Shown: one piece after another, positions 15,439 through 49,534 of the stretch
How positions within the stretch are numbered: the first letter of the stretch is position 1
Layout: every line of letters begins with the position of its first letter
Position numbers and translations under genes: made by a program
Source of the DNA: Patescibacteria group bacterium
Lineage (GTDB): Bacteria > Patescibacteriota > Patescibacteriia > XYB2-FULL-38-15
Direction of reading: 5' to 3'
Assembly: GCA_041653675.1 (NCBI GenBank)
Contig: JBAZEY010000003.1
Span: 13,284-77,283 of the forward strand
Length of the DNA: 64,000 nucleotides
Notes under the pieces: generated by a model
What the model was told of the DNA's origin: nothing
Seen by the model: the letters and a program-made list of their open reading frames with translations, nothing else
Database searches by the model: none

Positions 15439-17829
15439 CATATGTTTGATTACAAAGAAAAAAAGATTTCTCGGCAGCCAAAACGCAGAAAAACAAAATT
15501 GCGCCCTCTGGTTTTAATTTTAGGGATTTTTGCCGTGGCAAGTCTTGGTATTATTGCTATTGCCTTGTTGAAAAATTGGAGTTTTCCAGCTTCCGCAGCG
15601 CCAGGAATTTATAAGGTTTTAAATTACCAGGGAAAATTAGAAGATTCAGGCGGAGTTACGGTAGCTGATGGTGCATACAATATTAAATTTACAATTTACG
15701 ACGCAGCCGCGGCAGGAAATGTCCTTTGGTCTGCCCGAGAATCGGATGCTTGCGGCGCGGCTTTTAATCCTGCGGTAAAATCAGTCACAACTTCGCTTGG
15801 CGTATTCTCTACCCAACTTGGTGAGTCGGGTGATTGTCCGTTGAATTTAGATTTTAATAGTGATTCATATTATCTCGGCATAACCATTGGCGCTGATTCA
15901 GAAATGACTCCGAGAAAACGTATTGGCGCGGCCGGTTACGCTTTTAATGCGGATTTATTGGATGGTTTAACCACCTCTCTGGTCGGCGGCGCCTCTTCTT
16001 TTGTTCCCGCAACTGACGCTTCAGGAAATTTAGTTTTAACCGCCAATGTTACTTTTGACACACCCACTTTTTTTCTTGATTCTACTAATGATAATATTGG
16101 TATTGGTACCATTACACCAACCGCGACTCGTACCCTGGATTTAACGACGGCGAAAAAATATGGCATTTATGCCTCCTCAAGCGCGGCCATAAACCACATG
16201 GCGGTAATTTATGCCGAGGCAACGGACACAACAAACGTTGATCAGATGGGCGGATATTTTTCTTCAGCGAGTCCGAGCGGGAAGGGCGTTTATGGGGCAG
16301 CGGTTACAACGGGAAATCCGCTTGTCGCGAACCAGGGAGGATATTTTACCGCGGCTGGTGATTCGGGGCAGGGTGTTTATGGCGAAGGTTCAGCCTCTGG
16401 CGCTGTGACAAATTACGGGGGATATTTTGTGACACAAGGCGATACAGGATATGCAATTAGGGGCTTGGCTATGGCTACGGGTGGCGTAAACTATGGCGGA
16501 TATTTTAGAGCAAATGGTCCGGGCGGCTATGGAGTTTATGGCTACGCGGCGGATGCAAGTGCAGTGGCAAACTACGGCGGATATTTTACGGCAGCGGGTA
16601 CAGGCGCGGGAACAAGCGGTGTTTACGGTTTGGCATCGGGGGCTGGGGCAGTTTATGGTGTTAGAGGAGAAGTTTCAAACGCAACCGCAGTAACAAACTA
16701 TGGTGGATATTTTACCGCGGCTGGCAGTGGAGCTCTCGCGAGCGGTGTTTACGGAGAGGCTACTGCCGCCGGTTCAGTTATAGGTGTTAGGGGTTATGCG
16801 TCAGACCTTACTGCCGGAATTACAAATTATGGCGGATATTTTTCAGCTCAAGGCGGTACAGCCCGTGCCGTTTTTGGTGATGCCACCAATAATGGAGCAG
16901 AAATAAACTATGGAGGATATTTTACAGCGAGAGGAAGTGCTGTTGGCACCTCTGGAGTTTATGGGGAGGCGAGCGCGTCGGCTGCAGTCTACGGCGTTTA
17001 CGGAAAAGCTACTGACACTGGCGCGGTCGCGAATTATGGCGGATATTTTACTGCGGCTGGCGAGGACGGCGCTGCAGTTTATGGCGCAGCTACATCTGCG
17101 GCTGGCACGGCGAACAATGTAGGCGGATATTTTACGGCGGCGGGAGGTGGCGCAGATGCTTACGGCGTTTACGCTACTGTTACTGGGGGCGGCAACAACT
17201 TTGGTATTTATGCAAGTACGATATCAGCTACTGGCTGGGCTGGGTTTTTTAACGGTGGCAGGGGAATTTACGCTCTTCGTTTTTCAATTAATGACGGCAT
17301 CACCGTGGTTGATTATAATACCATTGGTCCGGCCCTTGCAGGTCACGTTGCGGCAGGAGAAATTACCGATCAGAACGATCTTTTCATTAATGGTAACTTG
17401 GAAGTTGACGGTGCCGTTTGGCTTGATGGTGGGCATACTGATTTGGCAGAAATGGTGGCGTATAGCGGAGAGGGTGAAGCCGGCGATGTTGTTGTGGTTG
17501 ATGAAAATAACGATAACTCGGCAAAGATTGCGGCCAAACCTTATGACCAAAGTATTCTTGGTATAATTTCTACCAAGCCGACATTGGTCATCACGGGTGA
17601 TATCACGGAAGGAAAATTAATGGCCGTAGCCGGCCGCGTCCCAACCAAGGTGACAAATATAAATGGAGCAATTCATCGTGGTGACCCGCTCACAACTTCT
17701 TCTTTGCCCGGTTACGCCATGAAGGCAACTGAAGCAGGGCCGATTGTTGGAAAATCTTTAGGTGAATGTGACCAACAAGAATGCGTCATTTGGGTTTTCT
17801 TAAATGTCAGTTGGTACGGAGGAATATAA
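15439..17829 (+). CDS. Paralogous anchored surface fiber-like protein (about 800 aa)
   Basis: N-terminal TM (LVLILGIFAVASLGIIAIALL). The same post-TM conserved domain (LNYQGKLEDSGG...YYLGITIGADSEMTPRKRIGAAGYAFNADLLDG), the NIGIGTITPTATRTLDL motif, about 15 NYGGYFTAAG repeats, and the shared C-terminal module (DLAEMV...LGIISTKP...AGRVPTKVTNINGAIHRGDPLTTS...AMKAT). Confidence 0.75.
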   Translation, partial: HMFDYKEKKISRQPKRRKTKLRPLVLILGIFAVASLGIIAIALLKNWSFPASAAPGIYKVLNYQGKLEDSGGVTVADGAYNIKFTIYDAAAAGNVLWSARESDACGAAFNPAVKSVTTSLGVFSTQLGESGDCPLNLDFNSDSYYLGITIGADSEMTPRKRIGAAGYAFNADLLDGLTTSLVGGASSFVPATDASGNLVLTANVTFDTPTFFLDSTNDNIGIGTITPTATRTLDLTTAKKYGIYASSSAAINHMAVIYAEATDTTNVDQMGGYFSSASPSGKGVYGAAVTTGNPLVANQGGYFTAAGDSGQGVYGEGSASGAVTNYGGYFVTQGDTGYAIRGLAMATGGVNYGGYFRANGPGGYGVYGYAADASAVANYGGYFTAAGTGAGTSGVYGLASGAGAVYGVRGEVSNATAVTNYGGYFTAAGSGALASGVYGEATAAGSVIGVRGYASDLTAGITNYGGYFSAQGGTARAVFGDATNNGAEINYGGYFTARGSAVGTSGVYGEASASAAVYGVYGKATDTGAVANYGGYFTAAGEDGAAVYGAATSAAGTANNVGGYFTAAGGGADAYGVYATVTGGGNNFGIYASTISATGWAGFFNGGRGIYALRFSINDGITVVDYNTIGPALAGHVAAGEITDQNDLFINGNLEVDGAVWLDGGHTDLAEMVAYSGEGEAGDVVVVDENNDNSAKIAAKPYDQSILGIISTKPTLVITGDITEGKLMAVAGRVPTKVTNINGAIHRGDPLTTSSLPGYAMKATEAGPIVGKSLGECDQQECVIWVFLNVSWYGGI
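16240..17260 (+). repeat. NYGGYF 20-aa tandem repeat region of the paralog
   Basis: Same period and consensus as 10590-13060. Confidence 0.8.
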
Positions 17830-17850
17830 AATTAAAAAATATTTTAGTAA

Positions 17851-17888
17851 AACTCCTCATCTTTTGGTGGGGAGTTTTTGTTTTTTGG
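17851..17888 (+). terminator. Rho-independent terminator
   Basis: aactcctcatcttttggtggggagtt followed by tttgtttttt. Confidence 0.55.
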
Positions 17889-17900
17889 TGTTTGACAAGG

Positions 17901-17929
17901 TTGACAAAATGTTAAAAATATGCTATTAT
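17901..17929 (+). promoter_or_regulatory. Sigma70-like promoter (TTGACA-17-TATTAT) upstream of the GC-rich lipoprotein gene
   Basis: ttgaca aaatgttaaaaatatgc tattat. An AT-rich host-type promoter that abuts the GC-rich gene. Confidence 0.5.
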
Positions 17930-18059
17930 TAATTGTAAAATTAGAGATGGAGATTAAGTGAAATTTGCTTTAAAATAAAGGATAAAGCCAATTTCAGGTG
18001 ACCTTCAACTTTTGGAGAACAACCGTTCCGCGAGAGGGCGGAACAAGGAGGATTTAGTG

Positions 18060-18665
18060 ATGAAGACGACGATGATCGCGATGGTGCTTGTTTCCGTGTT
18101 CGCGACTGGCTGCTGGGATAGCTACCAGAACTACGGCGAAGACACTTCGCCCCTCGCGACTTGCGAGGTCGAGGTGACGACGAACGTGGTCGAGGTGGTG
18201 ATCACGGTGGACGGCGTCGTGATCGGTGGCGTTGCGGAACTCGCGACGGGCATGCACACTTTCGCTGCTACGGCTCCCGGGTATTACCCGGCAAGCGTGG
18301 TTGCGGAAGTAACCGAAGCATGCGCTCCGGTCGAACTCCAGCTCTTCCCGGATCTCGCCGGTGACTACGATCTCGTGCTACACAATAGCATCTATGATCG
18401 GCTGCTGCTCCACCTCGACCAGGATGAGGAAGGCAACCTCGTCGGCTACGACTGGTACACTGATGATCCGGGACACAGCTTCCAGGATTTCACCGGCACT
18501 GTTTCGTTCGATGGAGAAGTTCATCTCCTCTCGGACGATTCGGTCCGGCTGAATCTCACTGGCCGCTGGACTCCTCCGGGAATTGGTGGCGTCAGCCGTA
18601 TCGTCGGCAACTGGACCTCCGCTGCGGGAGGCGACGGAGACTGGCTCGCCGAGTCGCGACCGTAG
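18060..18665 (+). CDS. GC-rich lipoprotein with a PEGA-like domain
   Basis: RBS AAGGAGG 10 nt upstream. Lipoprotein signal MKTTMIAMVLVSVFATGC. The segment VVITVDGVVIGGVAELATGMHTFAATAPGYYPAS fits the PEGA pattern. About 60% GC against a roughly 40% background. Confidence 0.6.
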   Translation: MKTTMIAMVLVSVFATGCWDSYQNYGEDTSPLATCEVEVTTNVVEVVITVDGVVIGGVAELATGMHTFAATAPGYYPASVVAEVTEACAPVELQLFPDLAGDYDLVLHNSIYDRLLLHLDQDEEGNLVGYDWYTDDPGHSFQDFTGTVSFDGEVHLLSDDSVRLNLTGRWTPPGIGGVSRIVGNWTSAAGGDGDWLAESRP

Positions 18666-18676
18666 GTTACGACTCG

Positions 18677-18736
18677 AACCGGCATCTGGCAGAAATCGTG
18701 AAGAACGATTCTGTCGGATGCCGGTGTTTTTATTTC
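18677..18736 (+). terminator. Long imperfect hairpin plus T-run; copy 1 of a duplicated 58-nt element
   Basis: ccggcatctggcagaaatcg tgaagaa cgattctgtcggatgccgg followed by tgtttttatttc. Near-identical to 20278-20336. Confidence 0.6.
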
Positions 18737-18834
18737 AGAAAATCTAAAGAAGCACGCCTTGACTTTTGAGACATAATATATATGATAACGGCATAGATGG
18801 TCGGCTAGAGGTAGCCGACACAAGGAGGAGAAAG

Positions 18835-20184
18835 ATGAAAAAGGGGAACGGAAGGATCAAGGGGCTCTTTTTGATCGTCATCGCGACGATCGCGATTCTC
18901 GCCTATGCCGCTTGTGGCGACGACGAGCAGTTGTGTCCCAGCGCAGGGGACTGCATGGGACGGGAGTGCGGGCCGGATCCGGTTTGCATGACATCGTGCG
19001 GTGCATGCTCAATCGGAGAAGCATGTTCGGCGGACGGGATATGTATGCCGGACTGCGTGTCCAACTGCGCCGGCCGCGAGTGCGGATGGGACCCGGTCTG
19101 CGGCAACATGTCTTGCGGGACATGCCCGGCGGATCGGCCCAACTGCAATGCCACTACGGGGACTTGTTCGACTGATGGCCCGGATTGTCCGGCAGACCGC
19201 GACTGCGCCGGCCGCGAGTGCGGCCTCGATCCAATCTGCAGCGTTTCCTGCGGGACGTGTTCGGGCGGTGAGACGTGCAGTTCATCAGGAAGATGTGTTT
19301 GCGCTCCCAACTGCTCCGGCCGCGAGTGTGGGCTTGACCCAGTTTGTAGCGTCTCCTGCGGGACGTGTTCAAGCCCAGAGACATGCACTCCATCTGGAAC
19401 GTGCAACTGTACCAGGAACTGCGCCGGCCGTGAATGTGGTCCCGATCCGATTTGTGGCGTTTCCTGCGGCTCGTGTTCAGCTGGCTCATGCACCACGACG
19501 GGCACGTGCACCACGTGTTCATCCGGCGCAACGGAGTCGTGCGCCAATCTTTGCGGTTCGGCTGGCACGCGGAGTTGTAGTGTTTCGGGCGAATGGGGGC
19601 GGTGTCAGGGTGGGACTGCTCTGGTTCCTGTGGCTCTTACGGATGACACCTACATCGACAACGACCCCCCAACTGTCAACCACGGAACCGAAGAATTCGT
19701 GATCATAGGAAAGGGCGTTGCCGCTGACCCACGTCGCCTAGCATTCTTCCGTTTTGATGCGGATTTGGATACGTGGCGGGCGGAGGGCGCCACGTCGATA
19801 ATTCAGGCCGACCTGAGCGTATACGTGAGTGACCGCTTAGGCAGTCAACTTGAACTCTATGGTCTCTCAAATACGACCGGTGGTACTTGCGTGTGGAATG
19901 AAGATACACTGACGTATTACACCCAAGTCACCGCAGGAAGCACGAACTGCTATCCGGACCCGCTTGGCTGGGTCTACCCCGACATTTCGATGATTGTGGA
20001 TTACTCGATGGGCTACGTGGATATCACGGCGTATGTCCAGTGGCTTTGGGACGGCGCGGAGAACGACGGCTTCATGTTGACGAACAATTCGGGGAGTTCC
20101 ACTCCGTTTGCACGGTTGATTATCAACAGCACCGAGAATTCCCGGGATCCACCGAGCGTTTTGGTGAGAGTATCCTGCGAATAG
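18835..20184 (+). CDS. GC-rich secreted/lipoprotein: about 7 Cys-rich repeats (C..GRECG.DP.C..SCG.CS) plus a C-terminal DNRLRE-like domain
   Basis: RBS AAGGAGGAG. Signal LFLIVIATIAILAYAAC. Repeats such as DCAGRECGLDPICSVSCGTCSGGETCSSSGRC. The C-terminal domain carries the DNRLRE-family landmarks (DDTYIDNDPPTVNHG..., RLAFFRFDADL, WNEDTLTYYT, VDITAYVQWLWDGAENDGFML, INSTENSRDPPSVLVRV). Confidence 0.6.
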   Translation: MKKGNGRIKGLFLIVIATIAILAYAACGDDEQLCPSAGDCMGRECGPDPVCMTSCGACSIGEACSADGICMPDCVSNCAGRECGWDPVCGNMSCGTCPADRPNCNATTGTCSTDGPDCPADRDCAGRECGLDPICSVSCGTCSGGETCSSSGRCVCAPNCSGRECGLDPVCSVSCGTCSSPETCTPSGTCNCTRNCAGRECGPDPICGVSCGSCSAGSCTTTGTCTTCSSGATESCANLCGSAGTRSCSVSGEWGRCQGGTALVPVALTDDTYIDNDPPTVNHGTEEFVIIGKGVAADPRRLAFFRFDADLDTWRAEGATSIIQADLSVYVSDRLGSQLELYGLSNTTGGTCVWNEDTLTYYTQVTAGSTNCYPDPLGWVYPDISMIVDYSMGYVDITAYVQWLWDGAENDGFMLTNNSGSSTPFARLIINSTENSRDPPSVLVRVSCE

Positions 20185-20277
20185 CAGGAGAGCGGGCCGT
20201 GGACGGATTGTCTTAGCCCTCAGTACATAGATCGACGGGTGGCTGAATCTGGGTAGCCGAGTCACGGACGTGACCTA

Positions 20278-20336
20278 AACCGGCATCTGGCAGAAATCGC
20301 GAAGAACGATTCTGTCAGGTGCCGGCATTTTTTATT
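20278..20336 (+). terminator. Copy 2 of the duplicated hairpin-terminator element
   Basis: ccggcatctggcagaaatcg cgaagaa cgattctgtcaggtgccgg followed by cattttttatt. Confidence 0.6.
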
Positions 20337-20435
20337 ATAGAATTTTTCTTGACTTGATTTTTATGCTATAATTACTTAATTAATTTAACCGCTTATCCCC
20401 TAAAGTGAGTCTTTTGGGGAAAGTAAAACTTAAAT

Positions 20436-22787
20436 ATGAACACAATCGCGAACATTTGTGACAAGCTAGTGAAAGTTTGCCTAGCTTTTTTAGTTTTTGT
20501 TTTGCCAGTATTTTTTCTGCCATGGACGTTTGAAACTCTGGATTTTAACAAACAAAATATGTTGATCATTCTTACTCTTTTGGCCGGTCTAGCCTGGCTT
20601 GGGAAGATGATCGCTTCAAGACAAGTAACCTTAAGGAGAAGTTTTTTAAATGTATTAATTTTGTTATACACTGCGATTTATACTTTAGCGACGATTTTTT
20701 CATTCGATAAAATAAGAAGCTTTATCGGCGCATCTGGGCTCGAAAAGGAAGGGCTTGTGACAGTTCTTTGTTTTGTTGTTTTATACTTTATTATTATTAA
20801 CAATTTCCGTGATATAAAGGCGATAAAAAATTTACTTTACGCCTACCTTCTAGGCGCGGGGCTTGTAACAATATGGACAACACTCGCTTTTTTTGGAGTG
20901 TTGCCATCAGTGTTAATTTCTAGCCAGGCTCTAAACACGGTCGGCACCCTTAACGCTTTAGGAATTTTTCTTGTAGCCGCGTTTGTTTTACTTTGCCCAC
21001 TATTTTTAGGAGCTGAAACGGAAAAGGGCAAGAGCAGTAAAAAAGATCTTATAATAAAAATTGTGATGGCTGTAGTCGCCGCTCTTATGCTTTTTATCTT
21101 GGCGACGATTGATAACTGGACCGTATGGGCAATTTTTGTCCCGGCTATCGCCTTGATTTTAGCTTTTGCCATTATCAGAGCCCATGAAATCAAAAATTTA
21201 GGATGGTTATCTTTGCCCATGGCAGCTTTTGTTATCGCAGTTCTTTTATTTTTTATTAATACTCCGATTCCTTCACGTTTGCCGGCGGAAATTATGCCCT
21301 CTTTTTCTGCGAGTAGCGGGATTGCGAGGCAGACCTTGAGGGAGTCGCCGCTTTTGGGTTCTGGGCCGAGCACATATGTTTTTGATTATGCCAAATACAA
21401 GCCAGAGGGAGTAAATGAAACGCAACTTTGGGATGTTAAATTTGATCGCTCCGCCTCACGAGTATTAACCATGCTTACGACCACCGGGCTTTTTGGGATT
21501 ATTTCATGGCTGTTTGTTGTAGTCTTTTTGGGAGTTTTGGTTATTATTAATTTGATCAAAGAAAAATCCGGAGCGCTGTGGCTCAACCAATTGGCTGTTG
21601 GCGGAGCTTGGTTTGCCTTGCTTCTCGCAAAATTTATCTATTCTTCAAATTTAACTTTGGAATTTTCTTTCTGGATTCTTACGGCAATTTTAGTGGTTAT
21701 GACCTCTCATAAATTTTGGGAAATTTCTTTGAGTGGCGCGCCACGCATTTCCTTGATTTTGTCTTTTGCTTTAGCCCTCGGGTTGATTTTAACAGTCTCG
21801 TCGTTTTATCTTGTCGGCGAGCGCTATGCGGCTGACGCGAAGTTTGTCCAGGCAATAACATCCTTTAATAAAGGAGAAGACTTAAGCAAGTCTACGGAAC
21901 TTTTGAATCAAGCTGCTTCATTAAACCAACACAACGATGTTTATCTCAGAAATTTAGCTCAAAGTTTGCAGGCTGAAATAAATCAGACGATGGCAGCCAA
22001 ACCTTCCGAGGATGTGGCTAAAAAAATTCAGGATTTGGTGGCGGCTGATGTCCAGGTGGCAAAGCGCGCAACCGAAATTTCTCCAAAAAATTCAGCTAAT
22101 TGGGCGACGCTAGCGTCAATTTATCAAACAATCATGTCTCTTATCTCTGGAGCCGATGAATGGGCAGTGAATTCTTGGCAGAAGGCGATTGAGCTTGAGC
22201 CGTCGAGCCCGTATCTTTACACAGAGTTGGGAAAAACTTACGCGGCAATGGCCGATATGCTCGCGCCAAGTCTTCAATCGAAAGACGATAAGGTAAAAGC
22301 TGACGCTGAGACTAAGGTCAAGGAATATTTAACTAAAGCCGAGGAACAACTTAATAAGGCGATTGAAATCAAGGCGGATTATGCGCCAGCACATTTTGAA
22401 TTGGCTTTAGTGTATGGCCGTCAGGGAAAAATAAATGAGGCAATTAGTAAATTGGAAACCATTCAAGATTCTTTGTCGAACGACGTCGGCGTTGCTTTTC
22501 AGCTCGGCTTACTCTATGCGCAAAATAAAGAACTGGACAAAGCTACAGCTGAATTGGAAAAGGCAGTTGAACTTGCGCCAAGCTTTGCTAACGCGCGGTG
22601 GTATTTAGCGGCAATTTATGAGGAGCAGGGCAAAAAAGATTTAGCGTTGGCGCAGCTGGAAGAAATTTTAAAGACCAATCCGGATAATGAGACTGTTAAG
22701 CAGAAGATCGAGTCTTTAAAAAATCCAGCAGCCGAAGAAACCACGCCTTTACCAAATCCAATCCCCGAAACGGTTCCGGCACAATAG
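20436..22787 (+). CDS. Polytopic membrane protein (O-antigen ligase/Wzy_C-like) fused to a C-terminal TPR domain
   Basis: About 12 TM helices, then RESPLLGSGPSTYVF (ligase-like loop), then 4-5 TPR units (e.g. ARWYLAAIYEEQGKKDLALAQLEEILKTNPDNE). Confidence 0.5.
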   Translation: MNTIANICDKLVKVCLAFLVFVLPVFFLPWTFETLDFNKQNMLIILTLLAGLAWLGKMIASRQVTLRRSFLNVLILLYTAIYTLATIFSFDKIRSFIGASGLEKEGLVTVLCFVVLYFIIINNFRDIKAIKNLLYAYLLGAGLVTIWTTLAFFGVLPSVLISSQALNTVGTLNALGIFLVAAFVLLCPLFLGAETEKGKSSKKDLIIKIVMAVVAALMLFILATIDNWTVWAIFVPAIALILAFAIIRAHEIKNLGWLSLPMAAFVIAVLLFFINTPIPSRLPAEIMPSFSASSGIARQTLRESPLLGSGPSTYVFDYAKYKPEGVNETQLWDVKFDRSASRVLTMLTTTGLFGIISWLFVVVFLGVLVIINLIKEKSGALWLNQLAVGGAWFALLLAKFIYSSNLTLEFSFWILTAILVVMTSHKFWEISLSGAPRISLILSFALALGLILTVSSFYLVGERYAADAKFVQAITSFNKGEDLSKSTELLNQAASLNQHNDVYLRNLAQSLQAEINQTMAAKPSEDVAKKIQDLVAADVQVAKRATEISPKNSANWATLASIYQTIMSLISGADEWAVNSWQKAIELEPSSPYLYTELGKTYAAMADMLAPSLQSKDDKVKADAETKVKEYLTKAEEQLNKAIEIKADYAPAHFELALVYGRQGKINEAISKLETIQDSLSNDVGVAFQLGLLYAQNKELDKATAELEKAVELAPSFANARWYLAAIYEEQGKKDLALAQLEEILKTNPDNETVKQKIESLKNPAAEETTPLPNPIPETVPAQ

Positions 22788-22852: not shown

Positions 22853-22926
22853 GGGCCTATAGTATAGTAGTAAAACGCCTCCATGGCATGGAGGAGTCGA
22901 GGGTGCGATTCCCTCTAGGTCCACCA
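22853..22926 (+). tRNA. tRNA-Ala (anticodon GGC), encoded CCA, atypical D-arm
   Basis: Acceptor GGGCCTA/TAGGTCC with G3:U70. Anticodon stem CCTCC/GGAGG with loop ATGGCAT. T-arm GAGGG TGCGATT CCCTC. Discriminator A plus CCA. The D-arm pairs poorly (GTAT...AAAC, and the loop has no GG). Confidence 0.55.
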
Positions 22927-44630: not shown

Positions 44631-44659
44631 TTGACAAATGATATTTTCTGGCCTAAGAT
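44631..44659 (+). promoter_or_regulatory. Promoter (TTGACA-17-TAAGAT) for the GC-rich cNMP-binding gene
   Basis: ttgaca aatgatattttctggcc taagat. Confidence 0.45.
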
Positions 44660-44700
44660 GGGTAATCACGAACAAAAAGGGAGGGAAGGGAGGACTGATC

Positions 44701-45555
44701 GTGAGTGAAGAAACGAATGGTTGCCAGGGTAGTGAGCCCGTGGTCGAGGACAGATCTGAAAATTGCGTCCCTGGCGTCGAAGAAGACGGGGGAAGCAGCG
44801 AAAGGCAGTGCGATACTCTTGAGGGTTTGACGCAGTCGAAGGCGCTTGCCGCTTTTCTCGGGCAGCTCAAGATTGTGGAGATCCCTCCGGGCGGACGCCT
44901 TTACCAAGAAGGCGACCTCATCTCGCAAGTCTGCTACATCGTGAGCGGCAGGGTCGAAGTCAAGGCGACCGGTGAATTGATCGCCACAGTAGAAAAGGGC
45001 GAGCTGCTTGGGCTGGAAGAATTTCGTTACCGCAAGGAGAGCCCGAAATATACCCAAGAAGCGGTAGCTGTTCTGCCAACCTCGGTTGTCTGGCTGGATA
45101 ACGAAGGCCTAAGGACAGTCTTGGACTTGAACGCGGATTGTTTGGCGGCCTACGTTCGGCTACAGGCCAGAGTGAAGAGGGCGATCGAAAAGAAGCTCGG
45201 CCAGCTCAAGATAGACAAGAGCAAGCTGGAGGTTAGGGTTGCCCGACTGGGGGTAGCTTTGGGAGCAACCCAGGAGCAGCTCGTCAAGCTGCAAAAGCCG
45301 CCGCAGCCGCCTCCACCGCCGCGCAAACCTCTTCCATCAACAGCACTTCTTGGAAAGTTGGATGAAGCGCGTCGGGTTATTCGCGAGATGGGCCAGCTTT
45401 TCGTCGCGAGGGCCACAAACCTCAAGAAACTGCTCGTGGCTTTGCACGAGTTCGCCACGAAACATCCAGACTGGGCCAAACAGGAGGATTTCGTCGCGTT
45501 CAAGAAGAGCTTCGAAGGGCTTGTAGAACGTGATTCTCAATTCAAGGTGCCGTGA
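44701..45555 (+). CDS. GC-rich cyclic-nucleotide-binding domain protein with coiled-coil and Pro-rich segment
   Basis: GTG start with RBS AGGGAGGA. cNMP-binding fold (YQEGDLISQVCYIVSGRVEVKATGELIATVEKGELLGLEEF...). PPQPPPPPRKP linker. Confidence 0.6.
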   Translation: MSEETNGCQGSEPVVEDRSENCVPGVEEDGGSSERQCDTLEGLTQSKALAAFLGQLKIVEIPPGGRLYQEGDLISQVCYIVSGRVEVKATGELIATVEKGELLGLEEFRYRKESPKYTQEAVAVLPTSVVWLDNEGLRTVLDLNADCLAAYVRLQARVKRAIEKKLGQLKIDKSKLEVRVARLGVALGATQEQLVKLQKPPQPPPPPRKPLPSTALLGKLDEARRVIREMGQLFVARATNLKKLLVALHEFATKHPDWAKQEDFVAFKKSFEGLVERDSQFKVP

Positions 45556-45600
45556 AGCGGCACGAGCCGGACACTTTCAAGAGGTGTCCGGCATTTTATT
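45548..45600. terminator. Double hairpin bidirectional terminator
   Basis: gtgccgtgaagcggcac plus gccggacactttcaagaggtgtccggc followed by attttatttt. Confidence 0.6.
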
Positions 45601-45693
45601 TTATAACTTAATTATTAAATTTTTATAAAAAAATTCTGCCGCGGCTTGTGGCTTTGGCAGAATGGTGAAAACGATGGCGGCTGCTCGAGTTCG

Positions 45694-46449
45694 TTACCCG
45701 CAGCCGATTGGCGGGCACTTCACGGCAGTCCAGATTCCGAGGTTGTCGCCACTTGGCGAAACGATCGCTTCGCCCGTGACGTGCGTCTCGTCCGTAAAAT
45801 GGCCGACGTAACTTGTGCTGCCCGACGAGAAATTGATTTGCCGGCCATGGATCGTTGGCTCGTAGTAACTCGAGATGGCAGTAATGTCTCGGCCAGTTTG
45901 GCTGGCGTAGACGGCGACCGGAAAGGGGAAAGTTGCCCCGCTTAGTTCCCAGGCGCCTTCAGCGTTGATGACACTTTTCACGATGTGCGGCGCACTGCAG
46001 ACTTCCGGTTGGCAATCAACACAGCCTGCATCAATCGCCTCGCAGTCGTTCGTCACGCAAGCTGTGACAGTAGCCTCTGGTTCTGTATCACCGCCGAGGT
46101 CAAGAATGTCAGCCGTGGTTTGGACGAGCGTCATGGCTTCTCGCCGCGTTTCGATTGACGCTTCAATGGGTGCGAGACTCACAAGCGACGAATCGGAAAC
46201 GCGCCACTCCACGTCCTTGATCAGGATTCCATCGGAATTGTAGACGTAGGCGTGGAGTTTGTAGGCGTCGGCGTTCGTGGTGTCGCCGGTTGGCACGGGA
46301 GAAACGTTGGCTTCCGTGCTCGGAGTGCAATCCGAGACGATCGCCACAGCCATGGCGACACTCGAGTCGTTGGGACAGCGTTCGATGAACTCGTTCCGGC
46401 AGCCGAGCGCCATCACGAAAAGAACCGCAATCATCATCTTCGTTTTCAT
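45694..46449 (-). CDS. GC-rich lipoprotein, possibly Ig-like (Big_2-like) fold
   Basis: RBS TAAGGAGGA with promoter TTGAAA-16-TAAAAT on the minus strand. Lipoprotein signal MKTKMMIAVLFVMALGC. Multiple Cys pairs. Confidence 0.5.
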   Translation of the reverse strand: MKTKMMIAVLFVMALGCRNEFIERCPNDSSVAMAVAIVSDCTPSTEANVSPVPTGDTTNADAYKLHAYVYNSDGILIKDVEWRVSDSSLVSLAPIEASIETRREAMTLVQTTADILDLGGDTEPEATVTACVTNDCEAIDAGCVDCQPEVCSAPHIVKSVINAEGAWELSGATFPFPVAVYASQTGRDITAISSYYEPTIHGRQINFSSGSTSYVGHFTDETHVTGEAIVSPSGDNLGIWTAVKCPPIGCG

Positions 46450-46516
46450 CTGTATCCTCCTTACTGATTTTATTTTAACAAACTAAAAATAAATTTCAAA
46501 ATTTATAAAATAAAAA

Positions 46517-46560
46517 AAGGGGCTTCCGCGCGGCGTTACGAAACACCTTGCGGAAGCCCT
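46517..46560 (-). terminator. Strong Rho-independent terminator (minus strand)
   Basis: gggcttccgcaaggtgtttcgtaacgccgcgcggaagcccc followed by tttttttatttt on the minus strand. Confidence 0.7.
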
Positions 46561-47140
46561 TGGTCCCTTGGGAGTTATCCTCCAGATTTCTCCTTTGAAT
46601 CTCTCCCGGGAGTCCTTGGTCAGGCGCCCTTGCCCAACCTCATCGGGGAGTTAACCCCGTCTGGTAGCCCGTTTTTTCCCATCGGGCTCGGGGCGGCATT
46701 TTTAGACCGGAGTGACTGACATGCTAGCCAGCACGCGATCTTAACGAGGTAACCGCCGCTTTTCACTGCGTTTACGGCGCCGCGCTTGTGACGGCGATTG
46801 CAGCACCCCGACGGGTCTGCTGATTCTGGTCTTGGGGCGCATTCCATTTTGTCCCCAAAACTCTGGTTGCCCGTCCACCAGGGATCAGACGATTTATATT
46901 GCCGCGCCGTCTGCCAGGGCGCTTTAACCCTCCGCTCTGATCTCCTTCCCTTGGTAGCGAAGATGTGGAGCCGCCGGTTATCTACCTCAATCGAAGCACG
47001 GCTCCGATCGCGCCGTTTTGCGGGCACTGGTTATCTCCGAGCTCAAACCAATCCCGCCCCCGGGTAGACGAATTTATGTCCGCGCCAGCCTACCTTTGGC
47101 GCTCTGCCGATACATCCCCGTGCCACCACCTCCTTCTGTG
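46561..47140 (-). other. About 600-nt GC-rich non-coding block ending at the terminator
   Basis: No ORF with protein-like composition in any frame (only Arg-rich artefactual ORFs). Many local hairpins. It is contiguous with the GC-rich island and could be a structured RNA or a decayed coding remnant. Confidence 0.3.
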
Positions 47141-47473
47141 AAGAAAAACAAATTATTTATTTATCTTCATAGAAGGAAATAGGCGCAGAGAATTTTTAAG
47201 GTTAGTATAGATCTATTTTTTTGTCAAGAGTTTCGGAAAAAACAAAGAAAGGCCACTTGGCCCTCCTTGTTAATATATTTTAATATTAACTTTAAGAACA
47301 GCAGGAACAGCCTTTTAATCTCTTCGTGTGCTTCCGCAATTCTTTGCCCTTTTTGGTATTTTTAAGAGCGTGTTTTGTTCTGGCTTTCGCCGCGCTATTT
47401 TGTCCCATATTATTTAACTATTAATGATTTAATGAATTAATTTTGTCATATTGTCGGTAAGTCGTCAACTCCA

Positions 47474-49109: not shown

Positions 49110-49138
49110 TTGACAAATTTTTAGAAAAATATTATTGT
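49110..49138 (+). promoter_or_regulatory. Canonical promoter TTGACA-17-TATTGT
   Basis: ttgaca aatttttagaaaaatat tattgt. Confidence 0.5.
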
Positions 49139-49192
49139 TTATAGTCCGAATTGGTTTTGGCACGCAACCCATTCCTGGAGAAGGAGGAGAGG

Positions 49193-49465
49193 ATGGACAA
49201 GAGGTTCACGGATCTGACGCGCGAGGGAAGGATTCGACTGAGGGACTTCCTCCTGGCGCACGCCGAGAAGGGCGAGGAGGTCGTCGCGATCAAGGAGGTA
49301 CCGGTCGAAGGGAGGGCGCGTGTGGCCTTCGAGGAAGGCGAGCTCATCTGCGTTTCCCCCGTCTTCGTGGTCGAGGCGACCAAGAAGGAGATCTGGGTGT
49401 GCCACGCGTGGGACACCGAAGGGATTGTCCTCTGCCCCGATTACCCCTGCATCGTGCGGGTGTAG
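49193..49465 (+). CDS. GC-rich orphan small protein (90 aa), unknown function
   Basis: RBS GGAGAAGGAGGAGAGG then ATG. About 62% GC. Terminator ggccacctgaaacatggtggcc plus T-run at 49478-49515. Confidence 0.5.
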   Translation: MDKRFTDLTREGRIRLRDFLLAHAEKGEEVVAIKEVPVEGRARVAFEEGELICVSPVFVVEATKKEIWVCHAWDTEGIVLCPDYPCIVRV

Positions 49466-49534
49466 CGCCCGCGAACAGCACAACCAATCTGGCTCCTGGC
49501 CACCTGAAACATGGTGGCCTTATTTTTTTATAAT

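Follow-up and report, generated by a model that had tools for sequence, protein, structure and literature searches.

The window, a stretch of 64,000 nucleotides with an overall GC content of 43%, contains two neighbouring GC-rich genes that encode putative exported proteins, each accompanied by its own promoter, structured leader, and hairpin (Table 1). With GC contents of 0.60 and 0.59 and GC3 values of 0.72 and 0.65, respectively, the coding sequences of gene 1 and gene 2 differ from all remaining ORFs of the window (GC3 0.25-0.45) apart from those of a second island at 44.6-47.1 kb, in agreement with an earlier note on this DNA that had described a GC-rich two-gene island. Proteins with fn3 and CarboxypepD_reg domains and two giant NYGGYF-repeat proteins are encoded upstream, and a TPR membrane protein is encoded downstream.

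Table 1 Features of the two-gene locus and of the second GC-rich island, given in window positions
Feature	Position	Strand	Description and basis
Promoter and leader of cassette 1	17830-18019		GC 0.27
Cassette 1 promoter	17901..17929	+	TTGACA-17-TATTAT, upstream TG; consensus scan 11/12
Gene 1 structured 5' leader	17934..18052	+	Predicted long helix, then short GC-rich hairpin (about 18023-18044); SD AAGGAGG 18045-18051
Gene 1, conserved anchor of the locus	18060..18665	+	201-aa predicted lipoprotein; predicted PEGA beta-sandwich aa 34-93 and 8-stranded avidin/lipocalin-like beta-barrel aa 100-200
Terminator hairpin T1 (predicted)	18677..18731	+	Conserved 55-nt element, 19 bp plus interior loop, then T-run
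Inter-cassette promoter spacer	18732-18795		GC 0.31
Cassette 2 promoter	18759..18786	+	TTGACT-16-TATGAT, 31% GC spacer; scan 10/12
Cassette 2 leader	18800..18828	+	Stem-loop GTCGGCTA/TAGCCGAC 18800-18819; SD AAGGAGG 18822-18828; read from sequence
Gene 2, variable cassette	18835..20184	+	449-aa probable lipoprotein; five 8-Cys repeats, Cys-rich linker, CBM96/DNRLRE domain
Gene 2 plus 93-nt 3'UTR			GC 0.59
Non-coding 3'UTR of gene 2	20185..20277	+	GC-rich, 0.59; composition
Terminator hairpin T2 (predicted)	20278..20332	+	Second copy of the 55-nt element; closes the GC-rich block
Spacer beyond the island	20333-20435		GC 0.25
Second GC-rich island	44638..47150	.	Same compositional class, GC3 0.63-0.67
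cNMP-binding protein, second island	44638-45555	+	Pfam
251-aa lipoprotein, second island	45694-46449	-	Starts MKTKMMIAVLFVMALGC, with SD; translation
GC-rich region, second island	46500-47150		About 650 nt, no convincing ORF

The product of gene 1 begins with MKTTMIAMVLVSVFATGC, a lipoprotein-type signal peptide, and carries the lipobox ...VFATG-C18, in which G17 and C18 are invariant across 21 homologues. Signal peptide, lipobox, and invariant cysteine together predict a bacterial lipoprotein. The 21 homologues were retrieved from 5.8 billion proteins, and all named ones belong to Patescibacteria or Falkowbacteria; no homologue outside the clade was found among these or among a further 1.84 billion proteins. 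The PEGA domain that had been ascribed to gene 1 was not recovered by Pfam, as no family, PEGA (PF08308) included, matched the window protein at E<=0.1, and the orthologue P0137 has only a weak precomputed PEGA match. However, a profile of the 21 homologues matches, via positions 34-97 (E = 2e-30 to 1e-7), multi-PEGA proteins, which themselves score up to 464 bits on PF08308, and the distant full-length homologues P0192 (38.7 bits) and P0218 (28.3 bits) pass the PF08308 threshold (cut-off 20.8). In the AF2 model, the segment forms a PEGA beta-sandwich at pLDDT above 90. The assignment is thus supported by the family profile and the modelled fold rather than by a direct match of the window protein.

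Gene 2 encodes a protein starting with MKKGNGRIKGLFLIVIATIAILAYAAC, likewise a lipoprotein-type signal peptide, with the lipobox ...LAYAA-C27 and with C27 invariant in nine sequences. Because the residue at position -3 (Tyr) is atypical, we regard the product as a probable lipoprotein. The proposal that both proteins are exported is accordingly well matched by their signal peptides. The mature part contains five copies of a C..C.GRECG.DP.C..SCG.C module (nt 18940-19510, spacing 108-138 nt), followed by a domain that matches PF24517 (aa 266-444, nt 19630-20166; 41.9 bits, cut-off 26) and NF033679 (43.4 bits, cut-off 34), so that the Cys-rich repeats and the DNRLRE-type domain named in the earlier note are both present. 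The Myxococcus cysteine-rich repeat TIGR02232 is absent from the NCBIfam matches of gene 2 at E<=0.1, and by its sequence the repeat is a distinct, uncatalogued Cys-rich module. CBM96 domains are beta-sandwiches with a basic groove that bind polysaccharides, and the founding member binds alginate (PMC9971899). The AF2 model of gene 2 is poor (pLDDT 58 overall, <50 across most of the CBM96/DNRLRE domain), and a PDB sequence search yielded no match. The lipoboxes, the CBM96 domain, and the modelled PEGA and avidin-like barrel folds suggest that both products may be exported binding proteins.

Outside the clade, the nearest relatives of the Cys-rich repeats are proteins of Myxococcota/Deltaproteobacteria, with a best identity of only ~52% that is restricted to the repeats. 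The two best of these relatives lie on contigs of uniformly 62-65% GC, and the GC3 of the Myxococcota-type repeat contigs (0.63-0.80) agrees with that of the island; the outside matches are fused to FGE-sulfatase, PEGA, or CarboxypepD_reg domains. This points to at least the repeat module having been taken from GC-rich Myxococcota-like bacteria. The earlier statement that the repeat is typical of high-GC bacteria therefore holds for its nearest outside relatives, but does not extend to gene 1, whose homologues are confined to Patescibacteria and Falkowbacteria.

Both genes are preceded by the Shine-Dalgarno (SD) sequence AAGGAGG, whereas a 5-mer SD core between -4 and -20 is present in only 9 of the 43 ORFs of the window, which confirms the contrast with native genes noted before. 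Conserved across the clade, the cassette 1 promoter is AT-rich, and its -35 and extended -10 elements are invariant in seven related loci. For the leader of gene 1, RNAalifold on eight distinct copies predicted 28 pairs, nine of them with compensatory changes; 95.5% of cells were paired compared to at most 53% in slid controls, and the covariation score was reached by none of 500 shuffles. The stem-loop that precedes the SD in cassette 2 is laid out like the second hairpin in the leader of gene 1, and the cassette 2 spacer, promoter, and leader recur before two cassettes of the related locus L019.

The two 55-nt hairpins are 91% identical to each other. In related loci, we found 15 distinct copies, all of which are paired (-33 kcal/mol) and followed by T5-7, and 14 of them share an identical 5' arm, the remaining one differing by a T-to-C change. 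The G-U pairs favour the RNA of the plus strand. These features match a predicted intrinsic (Rho-independent) terminator, although a simple terminator scan missed the element owing to its interior loop and RNAalifold was used instead. A pattern scan retrieved the hairpin from the clade only (two GTDB genomes and four JGI contigs) and not once from viral contigs, and Rfam at permissive thresholds returned nothing credible for either the leader or the hairpin.

The island looks compositionally foreign at every codon position, with a K/(K+R) of 0.17 compared to 0.56-0.80 in housekeeping genes. The island is a mosaic rather than a single uniform stretch, with GC transitions that match promoter and terminator boundaries (Table 1). 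As the 3'UTR of gene 2 is also GC-rich, the GC excess reaches beyond codons. An amino-acid-driven GC peak was rejected as an explanation of the island because of its high GC3. Peaks of that kind do exist in the window: at 10-13 kb and at 14.85-15.3 kb, they stem from Gly/Ala/Pro-rich protein sequence while GC3 stays at a native 0.38, and they represent a different phenomenon. For the second island, PADLOC revealed a domain-level resemblance of the cNMP protein to Pycsar components only, and no credible Rfam match was obtained for the region at 46.5-47.15 kb, even at permissive thresholds. No defence-system link of the island genes was reported by PADLOC.

We identified the cassette locus in eight further distinct related loci (L005, L008, L009, L011, L013, L016, L019, and L022); L006 is 100% identical to L005 and was not counted as an independent variant. 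Where both sides are readable, the gene order is giant protein, ~800-aa protein, gene 1, zero to two cassettes, 783-aa TPR gene, and YchF. Gene 1 is syntenic in all six further related genomes with a readable gene 1 neighbourhood, with a GC3 of 0.76-0.79 compared to 0.35-0.51 in the flanks. Across the related loci, every cassette is GC-rich (GC 0.57-0.63; gene 1 orthologues GC3 0.72-0.79) and is followed by the 55-nt hairpin, while the cargo differs (metzincin, Lcl_C, and others) and the gene 2 cassette is missing from several relatives. Best hits in close relatives of the same GC had been named as an outcome that would refute import, and for gene 1 this is in part what we observed: its matches are related Patescibacteria, with GC-rich genes in AT-rich flanks. 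Neither in the window nor in the related loci read did we find an integrase or recombinase gene at a distance of up to 10 kb, and the island borders showed no mobility genes, flanking tRNA, or direct repeats; the nearest tRNA lies at 22853, past the TPR gene. A prophage or mobile element was dismissed on account of the absent mobility genes and the conserved synteny.

The conserved frames around the coding bodies are evident from comparisons between loci. Cassettes of the window, L016, and L019 have a common promoter, leader, and MKKGN..AYAACGDDE signal peptide with 83% nucleotide identity. In L019, hairpin, promoter, leader, and this signal peptide are present twice with different mature domains, and the window sequence aligns with L019 at 81% identity as far as the last Cys repeat, after which no alignment is possible. 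L008 and L009 share 95% identity in their TPR and YchF proteins, whereas gene 1 reaches just 53%; at the nucleotide level, identity is 87% in the leader, 67% in the gene 1 region, and 91% in the TPR gene. By these sequences, the alleles of gene 1 do not follow the relationships of their flanks, and the loss of identity is restricted to the coding sequence.

The pattern of substitutions bears on how the GC-rich state persists. Polarised synonymous changes on independent terminal branches (S>W 51/434, W>S 32/84) give an equilibrium GC3 of ~0.76 for gene 1, compared to 0.38 for the neighbouring TPR gene (S>W 138/602, W>S 171/1215), with Fisher p values of 3e-6 and 2e-7; the counts are small and were polarised by parsimony at dS 0.5-1.1, the known bias of parsimony opposing this result. 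At flank rates, an S>W:W>S ratio of 99:12 would be expected in gene 1, while 51:32 was observed (p = 3e-11). The GC-richness thus appears to be maintained and not to decay toward 0.4. In line with this, gene 1 homologues at only 26-31% identity are still GC-rich (GC3 0.66-0.68) in flanks of 30-39% GC. The GC-rich state of the locus looks old and equilibrium-like, unlike a fading recent import. Biased gene conversion, mRNA selection, or an unsampled GC-rich reservoir may be its cause. To our knowledge, GC-biased gene conversion of this size (+35 points GC3) is undocumented in bacteria, and the AT-rich promoter spacers within the recombining unit show no GC enrichment. If the alleles diversified in a GC-rich reservoir, the substitutions would reflect conditions there rather than maintenance in place.

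Weighing these data, we lean towards the view that the region is a lineage-specific variable surface-lipoprotein cassette locus of a Falkowbacteria-like Patescibacteria clade, in which coding bodies are swapped by means of conserved frames and which has reached an old GC-rich equilibrium. Gene 1, with its putative PEGA and beta-barrel domains, would be the conserved anchor, followed by zero to two more cassettes. Each cassette would be transcribed as a unit of its own: an AT-rich promoter of the sigma-70 type and a leader whose stem-loop ends just ahead of a strong SD would precede the lipoprotein signal peptide and a variable ectodomain, and the nearly invariant 55-nt hairpin terminator would follow. 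Hairpin, promoter/leader, and signal peptide could act as homology anchors that allow coding bodies to be duplicated, and to be swapped and replaced among lineages; identity profiles from a handful of genomes suggest such exchange. Swapping might diversify an adhesin and glycan-binding repertoire, plausibly for attachment to host cells or polysaccharides. Most likely, the GC content is upheld locally, whether through GC-biased repair or gene conversion at this recombination hot spot, through selection for GC-rich, hairpin-capped stable mRNAs, or through both.

More tentatively, and at somewhat less than even chances, the clade might maintain two compositional "dialects" within one small genome, with dispersed exported-lipoprotein genes kept at ~60% GC (equilibrium GC3 ~0.76) in a 42% GC chromosome by a local process. 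Genes of this class would all combine a GC-rich body with a strong SD, a stem-loop on the 5' side, and a conserved terminator based on CCGGC. Rather than repeated import, the local process would be gene conversion with a GC bias at recombination hot spots, or else selection favouring mRNAs of very high stability. If true, surface-protein modules taken up from other bacteria could be slotted into the conserved frames, which would form a natural plug-in system.

A host bacterium, plasmid, or virus might act as an unsampled GC-rich reservoir that carries the same frames and continually resupplies cassettes. With replacement outpacing amelioration, the cassettes would look foreign at all times, and the incongruence of gene 1 alleles with their flanks would also be accounted for. 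GC-rich lipoprotein genes do come and go at other loci between close relatives; for instance, L009 and L013 have a 194-aa gene after YchF that is missing from L008 and from the window. SD, MKT-type lipoprotein signal peptides, and CCGGC...GCCGG-based terminators form the common "dialect" of these genes. However, neither the hairpin nor gene 1 occurred in a GC-rich or viral context in 596 Gb of GTDB genomes, IMG/VR, JGI metagenomes, and two protein libraries, phage and plasmid collections contained no DNA match, and all recovered contexts have AT-rich flanks. We consider such a reservoir unlikely.

The earlier note had proposed a horizontal acquisition from a high-GC donor, plausibly a host, so that a recently imported two-gene block would not yet have ameliorated. 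The foreign-like composition, the strong SDs that are unusual among native genes, the Myxococcota relatives of the repeats with their matching GC3, and the patchy presence of the gene 2 cassette are what such an event would leave behind. Sporadic presence together with distant homologues fits the gene 2 cassette and its repeat module, but not gene 1, which lies GC-rich at the same site in every related locus with a readable neighbourhood. Being clade-restricted, syntenic, and at a GC-rich equilibrium, gene 1 does not qualify as a recent strain-specific import. Promoters and leaders are AT-rich, native-like, and conserved, and outside identity is limited to the repeats. Among the features expected of a horizontal island, atypical composition is present, whereas mobility genes, border features, and amelioration toward the host are not. 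What stands of the proposal is thus the composition and the origin suggested for the repeats, and recent import of the whole block is, in our assessment, improbable.

Integron arrays resemble the locus in their single-ORF units in tandem, each closed by a conserved imperfect hairpin, and the G-U wobbles of the 55-nt element would provide the strand-specific structure of an attC-type recombination site. We nevertheless rejected a site-specific system of this type as very improbable, since an integrase and attC core sites are lacking (the hairpin flanks CTCGAAC/CCTAAAC and GTTTTTA/ATTTTTT do not fit RYYYAAC/GTTRRRY), each unit has its own promoter and SD instead of a common Pc promoter, the T-run resembles that of an intrinsic terminator, and conserved homology runs past the hairpin into promoter and signal peptide. 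The joining of reads of a GC-rich organism into a CPR contig, for which the sharp GC transitions are the sole argument, can practically be disregarded, as these transitions sit at promoter/terminator boundaries, related species in JGI, NCBI, and ENA data have the same architecture, and the junctions recur, with 99.95-100% identity, in three further assemblies built from different runs (Logan contig SRR18595300, identical to window 17692-21097 and spanning both; SRR6484325, identical to 16606-19980; and an ENA MEGAHIT contig at 99.95% over 21 kb).

Patescibacteria are thought to live attached to host cells, and both their attachment proteins and their hosts are mostly unknown. The variable cassette locus that we favour supplies a defined, variable set of candidate adhesins, namely PEGA-barrel, CBM96, Lcl_C, and metzincin lipoproteins, and the 55-nt hairpin together with the leader provides a DNA signature by which more of them could be located. 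Its repeat module points to genetic contact with Myxococcota-like bacteria. More generally, "atypical GC" need not imply recent transfer, as the anomaly is common to species whose neighbouring genes are synonymously saturated and is apparently at equilibrium. The locus may therefore offer a compact natural setting in which GC-biased gene conversion in bacteria could be weighed against selection on the composition of synonymous sites and mRNAs.

Several known systems share parts of this organisation. Multi-domain secreted proteins of Myxococcota/"Deltaproteobacteria" (P0002, P0004, P0006, P0007, and others) contain the same 8-Cys repeat of ~36 aa (C.GRECG.DP.CG.SCG.C) at ~50% identity and in several tandem copies; they are secreted or lipoproteins, and some contain Lcl_C, like one cassette of L022. 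They differ in their partners (FGE-sulfatase, CarboxypepD_reg, PEGA, and Lcl_C), stem from genomes of uniformly 62-72% GC, and none has the CPR frames or the hairpin. The O-antigen and capsule loci of Enterobacteria are persistently atypical in GC and recombine through their flanks. They resemble the locus in long-persisting atypical GC, allelic replacement via conserved flanks, and a cell-surface function, but are AT-rich in GC-neutral genomes, encode biosynthetic enzymes, and have no repeated terminator element.

The vsp, vlp, and vpma loci of Mycoplasma (locus descriptions in PMC3365025 and PMC2824730) are variable surface-lipoprotein loci in a reduced-genome, host-dependent bacterium. There too, lipoprotein genes are arranged in tandem, with conserved 5' non-coding and signal peptide sequences and variable, repeat-containing mature parts. 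However, each cassette described here has its own promoter, and the Mycoplasma loci are not GC-deviant in such a way. Since all cassettes have a promoter, variation would occur between lineages, in gene content and alleles, and apparently not by phase variation; we detected no recombinase gene nearby, no homopolymer tract in either promoter spacer, and no invertase.

Further parallels are flexible ("metagenomic") genomic islands for cell-surface proteins, such as the cell-wall-associated island of Haloquadratum walsbyi (PMC4535781), and the hypervariable surface-protein regions of a Gracilibacterium (PMC6851277). There as well, a fixed locus between conserved genes is of deviant composition and varies in exported or surface content among co-occurring lineages. 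In contrast to these islands, the locus is built from small standard expression cassettes with a common promoter, leader, and signal peptide and a sequence-conserved terminator, keeps one anchor gene everywhere, and appears to hold its compositional deviation at equilibrium.

In a 300-nt sliding profile, the island formed by gene 1 (a lipoprotein gene) and gene 2 (Cys-repeat and CBM96/DNRLRE protein) has a GC content of 0.51–0.65, or of 0.56–0.65 when the AT-rich spacer is left out, compared to 0.33–0.45 immediately outside. The excess is seated in codon choice, as seen in the codon-position analysis (GC3, see the table); all remaining ORFs of the window, the second GC-rich island at 44.6–47.1 kb excepted, have a GC3 of 0.25–0.45. 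Profile and GC3 thus bear out the earlier note, which had described a block of about 60% GC with high-GC codon choice between AT-richer flanks. Its further observation that both genes have a strong Shine-Dalgarno (SD) sequence, scarce elsewhere, also holds: AAGGAGG precedes both, and an SD core is found in 9 of 43 ORFs. Both proteins are predicted to be exported, as had been proposed, judging from lipoprotein-type signal peptides at their N-termini. The island is a mosaic in GC rather than a single uniform stretch. Amino-acid usage is shifted too, with a K/(K+R) of 0.17 versus 0.56–0.80 in housekeeping genes, and gene 2 has a non-coding 3'UTR of 59% GC; together, these two features indicate a force that acts on the region or transcript, beyond codons alone. 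Two other GC peaks in the window lie within a giant Gly/Ala/Pro-rich protein of native GC3 (0.38) and are driven by amino-acid content. The second of these, reaching 60% GC, corresponds to the Pro-rich (PAPSEPAP) C-terminal tail of the 2412-aa protein.

Features of the island, its surroundings and related loci (window positions unless a related locus is named)
Feature	Position	Strand	GC	GC3
Giant surface protein, 2412 aa	7992-15230			0.38
GC peak 1	10-13 kb			
GC peak 2	14.85-15.3 kb		60%	
Giant surface protein, 804 aa	15415-17829			
Cluster of assembly differences, 61 nt	15963-16023			
Island	~18.0-20.25 kb		0.51-0.65	
Promoter and leader of gene 1 (leader ~119 nt)	17934-18052 (leader)		0.27	
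Gene 1, 201 aa	18060-18665	+	0.60	0.72
Promoter spacer			0.31	
Gene 2 (GC including 3'UTR)	18835-20184	+	0.59	0.65
Downstream spacer			0.25	
Second GC-rich island	44638-47150			0.63-0.67
Region of ~650 nt in second island	46500-47150	-	58%	
Strong terminator of this region	~46500-46560			
Promoter-like site, TTGACA-N17-TACTAA	near 47200			
132-aa TTG ORF (GC1 0.78)	49135-49533			0.39
~195-aa lipoprotein gene, L009	8286-8870			0.72-0.73
~195-aa lipoprotein gene, L013	9341-9928			0.72-0.73
255-aa gene, L011	8908-9675			0.69

The neighbourhood is a cell-surface region, in which fn3/purple-acid-phosphatase-N and CarboxypepD_reg proteins and the giant NYGGYF-repeat proteins (2412 and 804 aa) are followed by the island and the gene of a 783-aa TPR membrane protein; beyond it lie YchF, S6-SSB-S18, a class II aminoacyl-tRNA synthetase (PF00152), EF-P and RecA. 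Both giant proteins contain dozens of 'NYGGYF...G.YG' repeats and share a conserved C-terminal module, 'GRVPTKV...G.I..GD.LT.S'; no Pfam family was found on the 804-aa protein, and none is listed for the 2412-aa protein in its precomputed record. In NCBI, an identical gene 1 protein has the source name 'Patescibacteria group bacterium', and among named relatives a Candidatus Falkowbacteria MAG is the closest.

We compared the locus with eight further distinct related loci, judging gene order where both sides were present. There, the order is constant and gene 1 is always directly upstream of the TPR gene, and the cassettes that follow gene 1 differ in number and identity: four loci (L008, L009, L011 and L013) have none, L005 encodes a metzincin-like 220-aa protein and a 509-aa Cys-repeat protein, L022 an Lcl_C-type 386-aa protein, and L019 two Cys-repeat proteins of 466 and 243 aa. 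L016 has a 383-aa Cys-repeat protein beside the TPR gene on a contig that stops short of the gene 1 position. All cassette genes of these loci are GC-rich (0.57–0.63), and an SD precedes each of them apart from those in L008 and L013 whose starts were mis-called too far upstream. An additional 255-aa gene with SD, a faint PEGA signal and a terminator of another type (CCCGTGAA...TTCACGGG) lies upstream of gene 1 in L011, which indicates that cassettes can be added on that side too.

The cassettes share conserved non-coding frames. At the end of every GC-rich cassette gene stands a common 55-nt element (15-bp lower stem, interior loop, 4-bp upper stem and T-run; -33 kcal/mol), which is predicted to be an intrinsic terminator by design and whose G-U pairs restrict the fold to the strand of the gene. 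All pairs are kept in 15 of 15 distinct copies, 14 have an unchanged 5' arm (the other differs by one T-to-C change), and the element is conserved between genomes whose neighbouring genes are synonymously saturated (dS 1.4–2.3). Such sequence conservation far exceeds the need of termination alone. A pattern scan recovered the hairpin in this clade only (two GTDB genomes and four JGI contigs), with no match in viral contigs. At the 5' end, gene 1 has a conserved promoter (TTGACA-17-TATTAT) and a leader of two helices backed by covariation, in which 9 of 28 pairs show compensatory changes and 95.5% of cells are paired versus at most 53% in slid controls; no Rfam family matches it. The same leader also precedes the metzincin cassette of L005. 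In the gene 1 leader, a CUUC segment closes the long helix with an upstream GGAG and has the downstream GAAG or the SD as potential alternative partners, which suggests a possible translational switch. In the frame of the downstream cassettes, the hairpin is followed by a promoter (TTGACT...TATGAT), a short stem-loop, the SD and a signal peptide of the form MKKGN..AYAACGDDE. L019 contains this frame twice, each time with a different mature domain, and the alignment of the window with L019 (81%) reaches as far as the Cys repeats extend and stops there.

Gene 1 itself is rare, with only 21 homologues in a 5.8-billion-protein set; an exhaustive profile search added just two distant full-length relatives, which have a GC3 of 0.66–0.68, flanks of 30–39% GC, an SD and a terminator of analogous build, CCGGC...GCCGG. 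The PEGA assignment of the earlier note was not recovered by a direct Pfam search of the gene 1 protein, and was supported by the family profile, which matches PEGA-repeat proteins via residues 34–97; the distant full-length homologues exceed the Pfam PEGA threshold. The domains assigned to gene 2 were found as described: an 8-Cys repeat, about 36 aa long and present five times, and a CBM96/DNRLRE domain scoring above curated thresholds. L008 and L009 share 95% identity in the TPR and YchF proteins and 53% in the gene 1 protein (nucleotides: leader 87%, gene 1 region 67%, TPR 91%), and between L009 and L013 the values are 81% for TPR and 82% for gene 1. In these alignments, gene 1 alleles are incongruent with their flanks, which points to allelic replacement within borders set by the conserved frames.

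Elsewhere, a ~195-aa lipoprotein gene with an AACCGGC...GCCGGTG-T-run terminator lies between YchF and a methyltransferase gene in L009 and L013; the window, L005, L008 and L011 lack it there. Its presence in L009 and absence from L008, with flanking proteins 95% identical, implies that GC-rich lipoprotein genes come and go at other sites as well. The second GC-rich island of the window, from which the 55-nt hairpin is absent, encodes a 305-aa cNMP-binding protein (plus strand) with its own terminator (GCCGGACAC...GTGTCCGGC) and a 251-aa lipoprotein (minus strand) whose gene has an SD and whose signal peptide, MKTKMMIAVLFVMALGC, is similar to that of gene 1. Its ~650-nt region between the promoter-like site and the strong terminator folds better than shuffles (z = -3.8, both strands) and contains an internal repeat, GGCGCGG.CA.ATAAAT.CGTCT. 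The sole ORF there, an unconvincing 135-aa GTG ORF, has no Pfam or NCBIfam match, and Rfam gave nothing credible; the region could be a structured RNA of a new type or a decayed gene. The 132-aa TTG ORF, without a Pfam match, is either a strongly biased native protein (Gly/Ala/Val/Asp/Glu-type) or no real gene.

In order to assess the state of the composition, synonymous third-position changes were polarised on terminal branches with two relatives as reference, counting independent branches. GC-to-AT changes affected 51 of 434 and AT-to-GC changes 32 of 84 sites in gene 1, compared to 138 of 602 and 171 of 1215 in TPR (Fisher p = 3e-6 and 2e-7). The implied equilibrium GC3 is 0.76 for gene 1, which equals its current GC3, 0.38 for TPR and 0.36 for YchF. 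Under flank rates, a ratio of about 99:12 would be expected in gene 1 instead of the observed 51:32 (p = 3e-11), and the parsimony bias, which over-counts common-to-rare changes, works against this result; the numbers of changes are small, and dS lies in a high range (0.5–1.1). This is strong but not final evidence that gene 1 is at a GC-rich equilibrium and is not fading. A long-lived GC-rich composition is the best-supported reading.

Three causes are candidates for this persistence. A recombination hot spot might keep the cassettes GC-rich through GC-biased gene conversion, although in bacteria such conversion is documented as a weak effect only (PMC4450053); selection might favour GC-rich mRNAs with hairpin caps at their 5' and 3' ends; or the cassettes might be replaced from an unsampled GC-rich reservoir. 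Because very large searches (protein sets, GTDB, viral, JGI, and phage and plasmid DNA) found no such reservoir, we favour maintenance in place.

The horizontal acquisition from a high-GC donor proposed in the earlier note survives in part. The gene 2 repeats, about half of the protein, share ~50% identity with proteins named Myxococcota or Deltaproteobacteria, where they are combined with FGE-sulfatase, CarboxypepD_reg, PEGA or Lcl_C domains. The two best matches lie on contigs of uniformly 62–65% GC (gene GC3 0.63 and 0.80), and one named Myxococcota contig has 72% GC, which makes capture of the Cys-repeat module from a GC-rich lineage plausible. Full-length relatives with the same frames all fall inside the Patescibacteria clade (the proteins P0003 and P0009, and L016 and L019). 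A simple recent transfer fits, weakly, the variable cassette only. An integron is rejected: no integrase was found within 10 kb in the window or the related loci, the hairpin flanks do not match the core sites, and every cassette is equipped with a promoter. A chimeric assembly, the concern raised for the junctions, is excluded, since the identical proteins and the junctions recur on other assemblies at 99.95–100% identity: a Logan contig of SRR18595300 matches 17692–21097 at 100% and spans both, a contig of SRR6484325 matches 16606–19980 at 100%, and an ENA MEGAHIT contig agrees over 21 kb at 99.95% identity with 11 differences, none inside the island. Ten of these are grouped within 61 nt of the gene for the 804-aa repeat protein, a pattern suggestive of a short gene-conversion tract, either between repeats or between strains.

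Overall, the locus is best read as a clade-specific, variable surface-lipoprotein cassette locus, whose standardised frames would permit homologous recombination to duplicate, exchange and replace coding bodies. Its closest known counterparts are flexible genomic islands of the cell surface (PMC4535781, PMC6851277), the variable lipoprotein loci of Mycoplasma, and O-antigen and capsule loci, which resemble it in their persistent deviant GC. The standardised cassettes of the present locus, its sequence-conserved terminator and demonstrable compositional equilibrium set it apart from all three.
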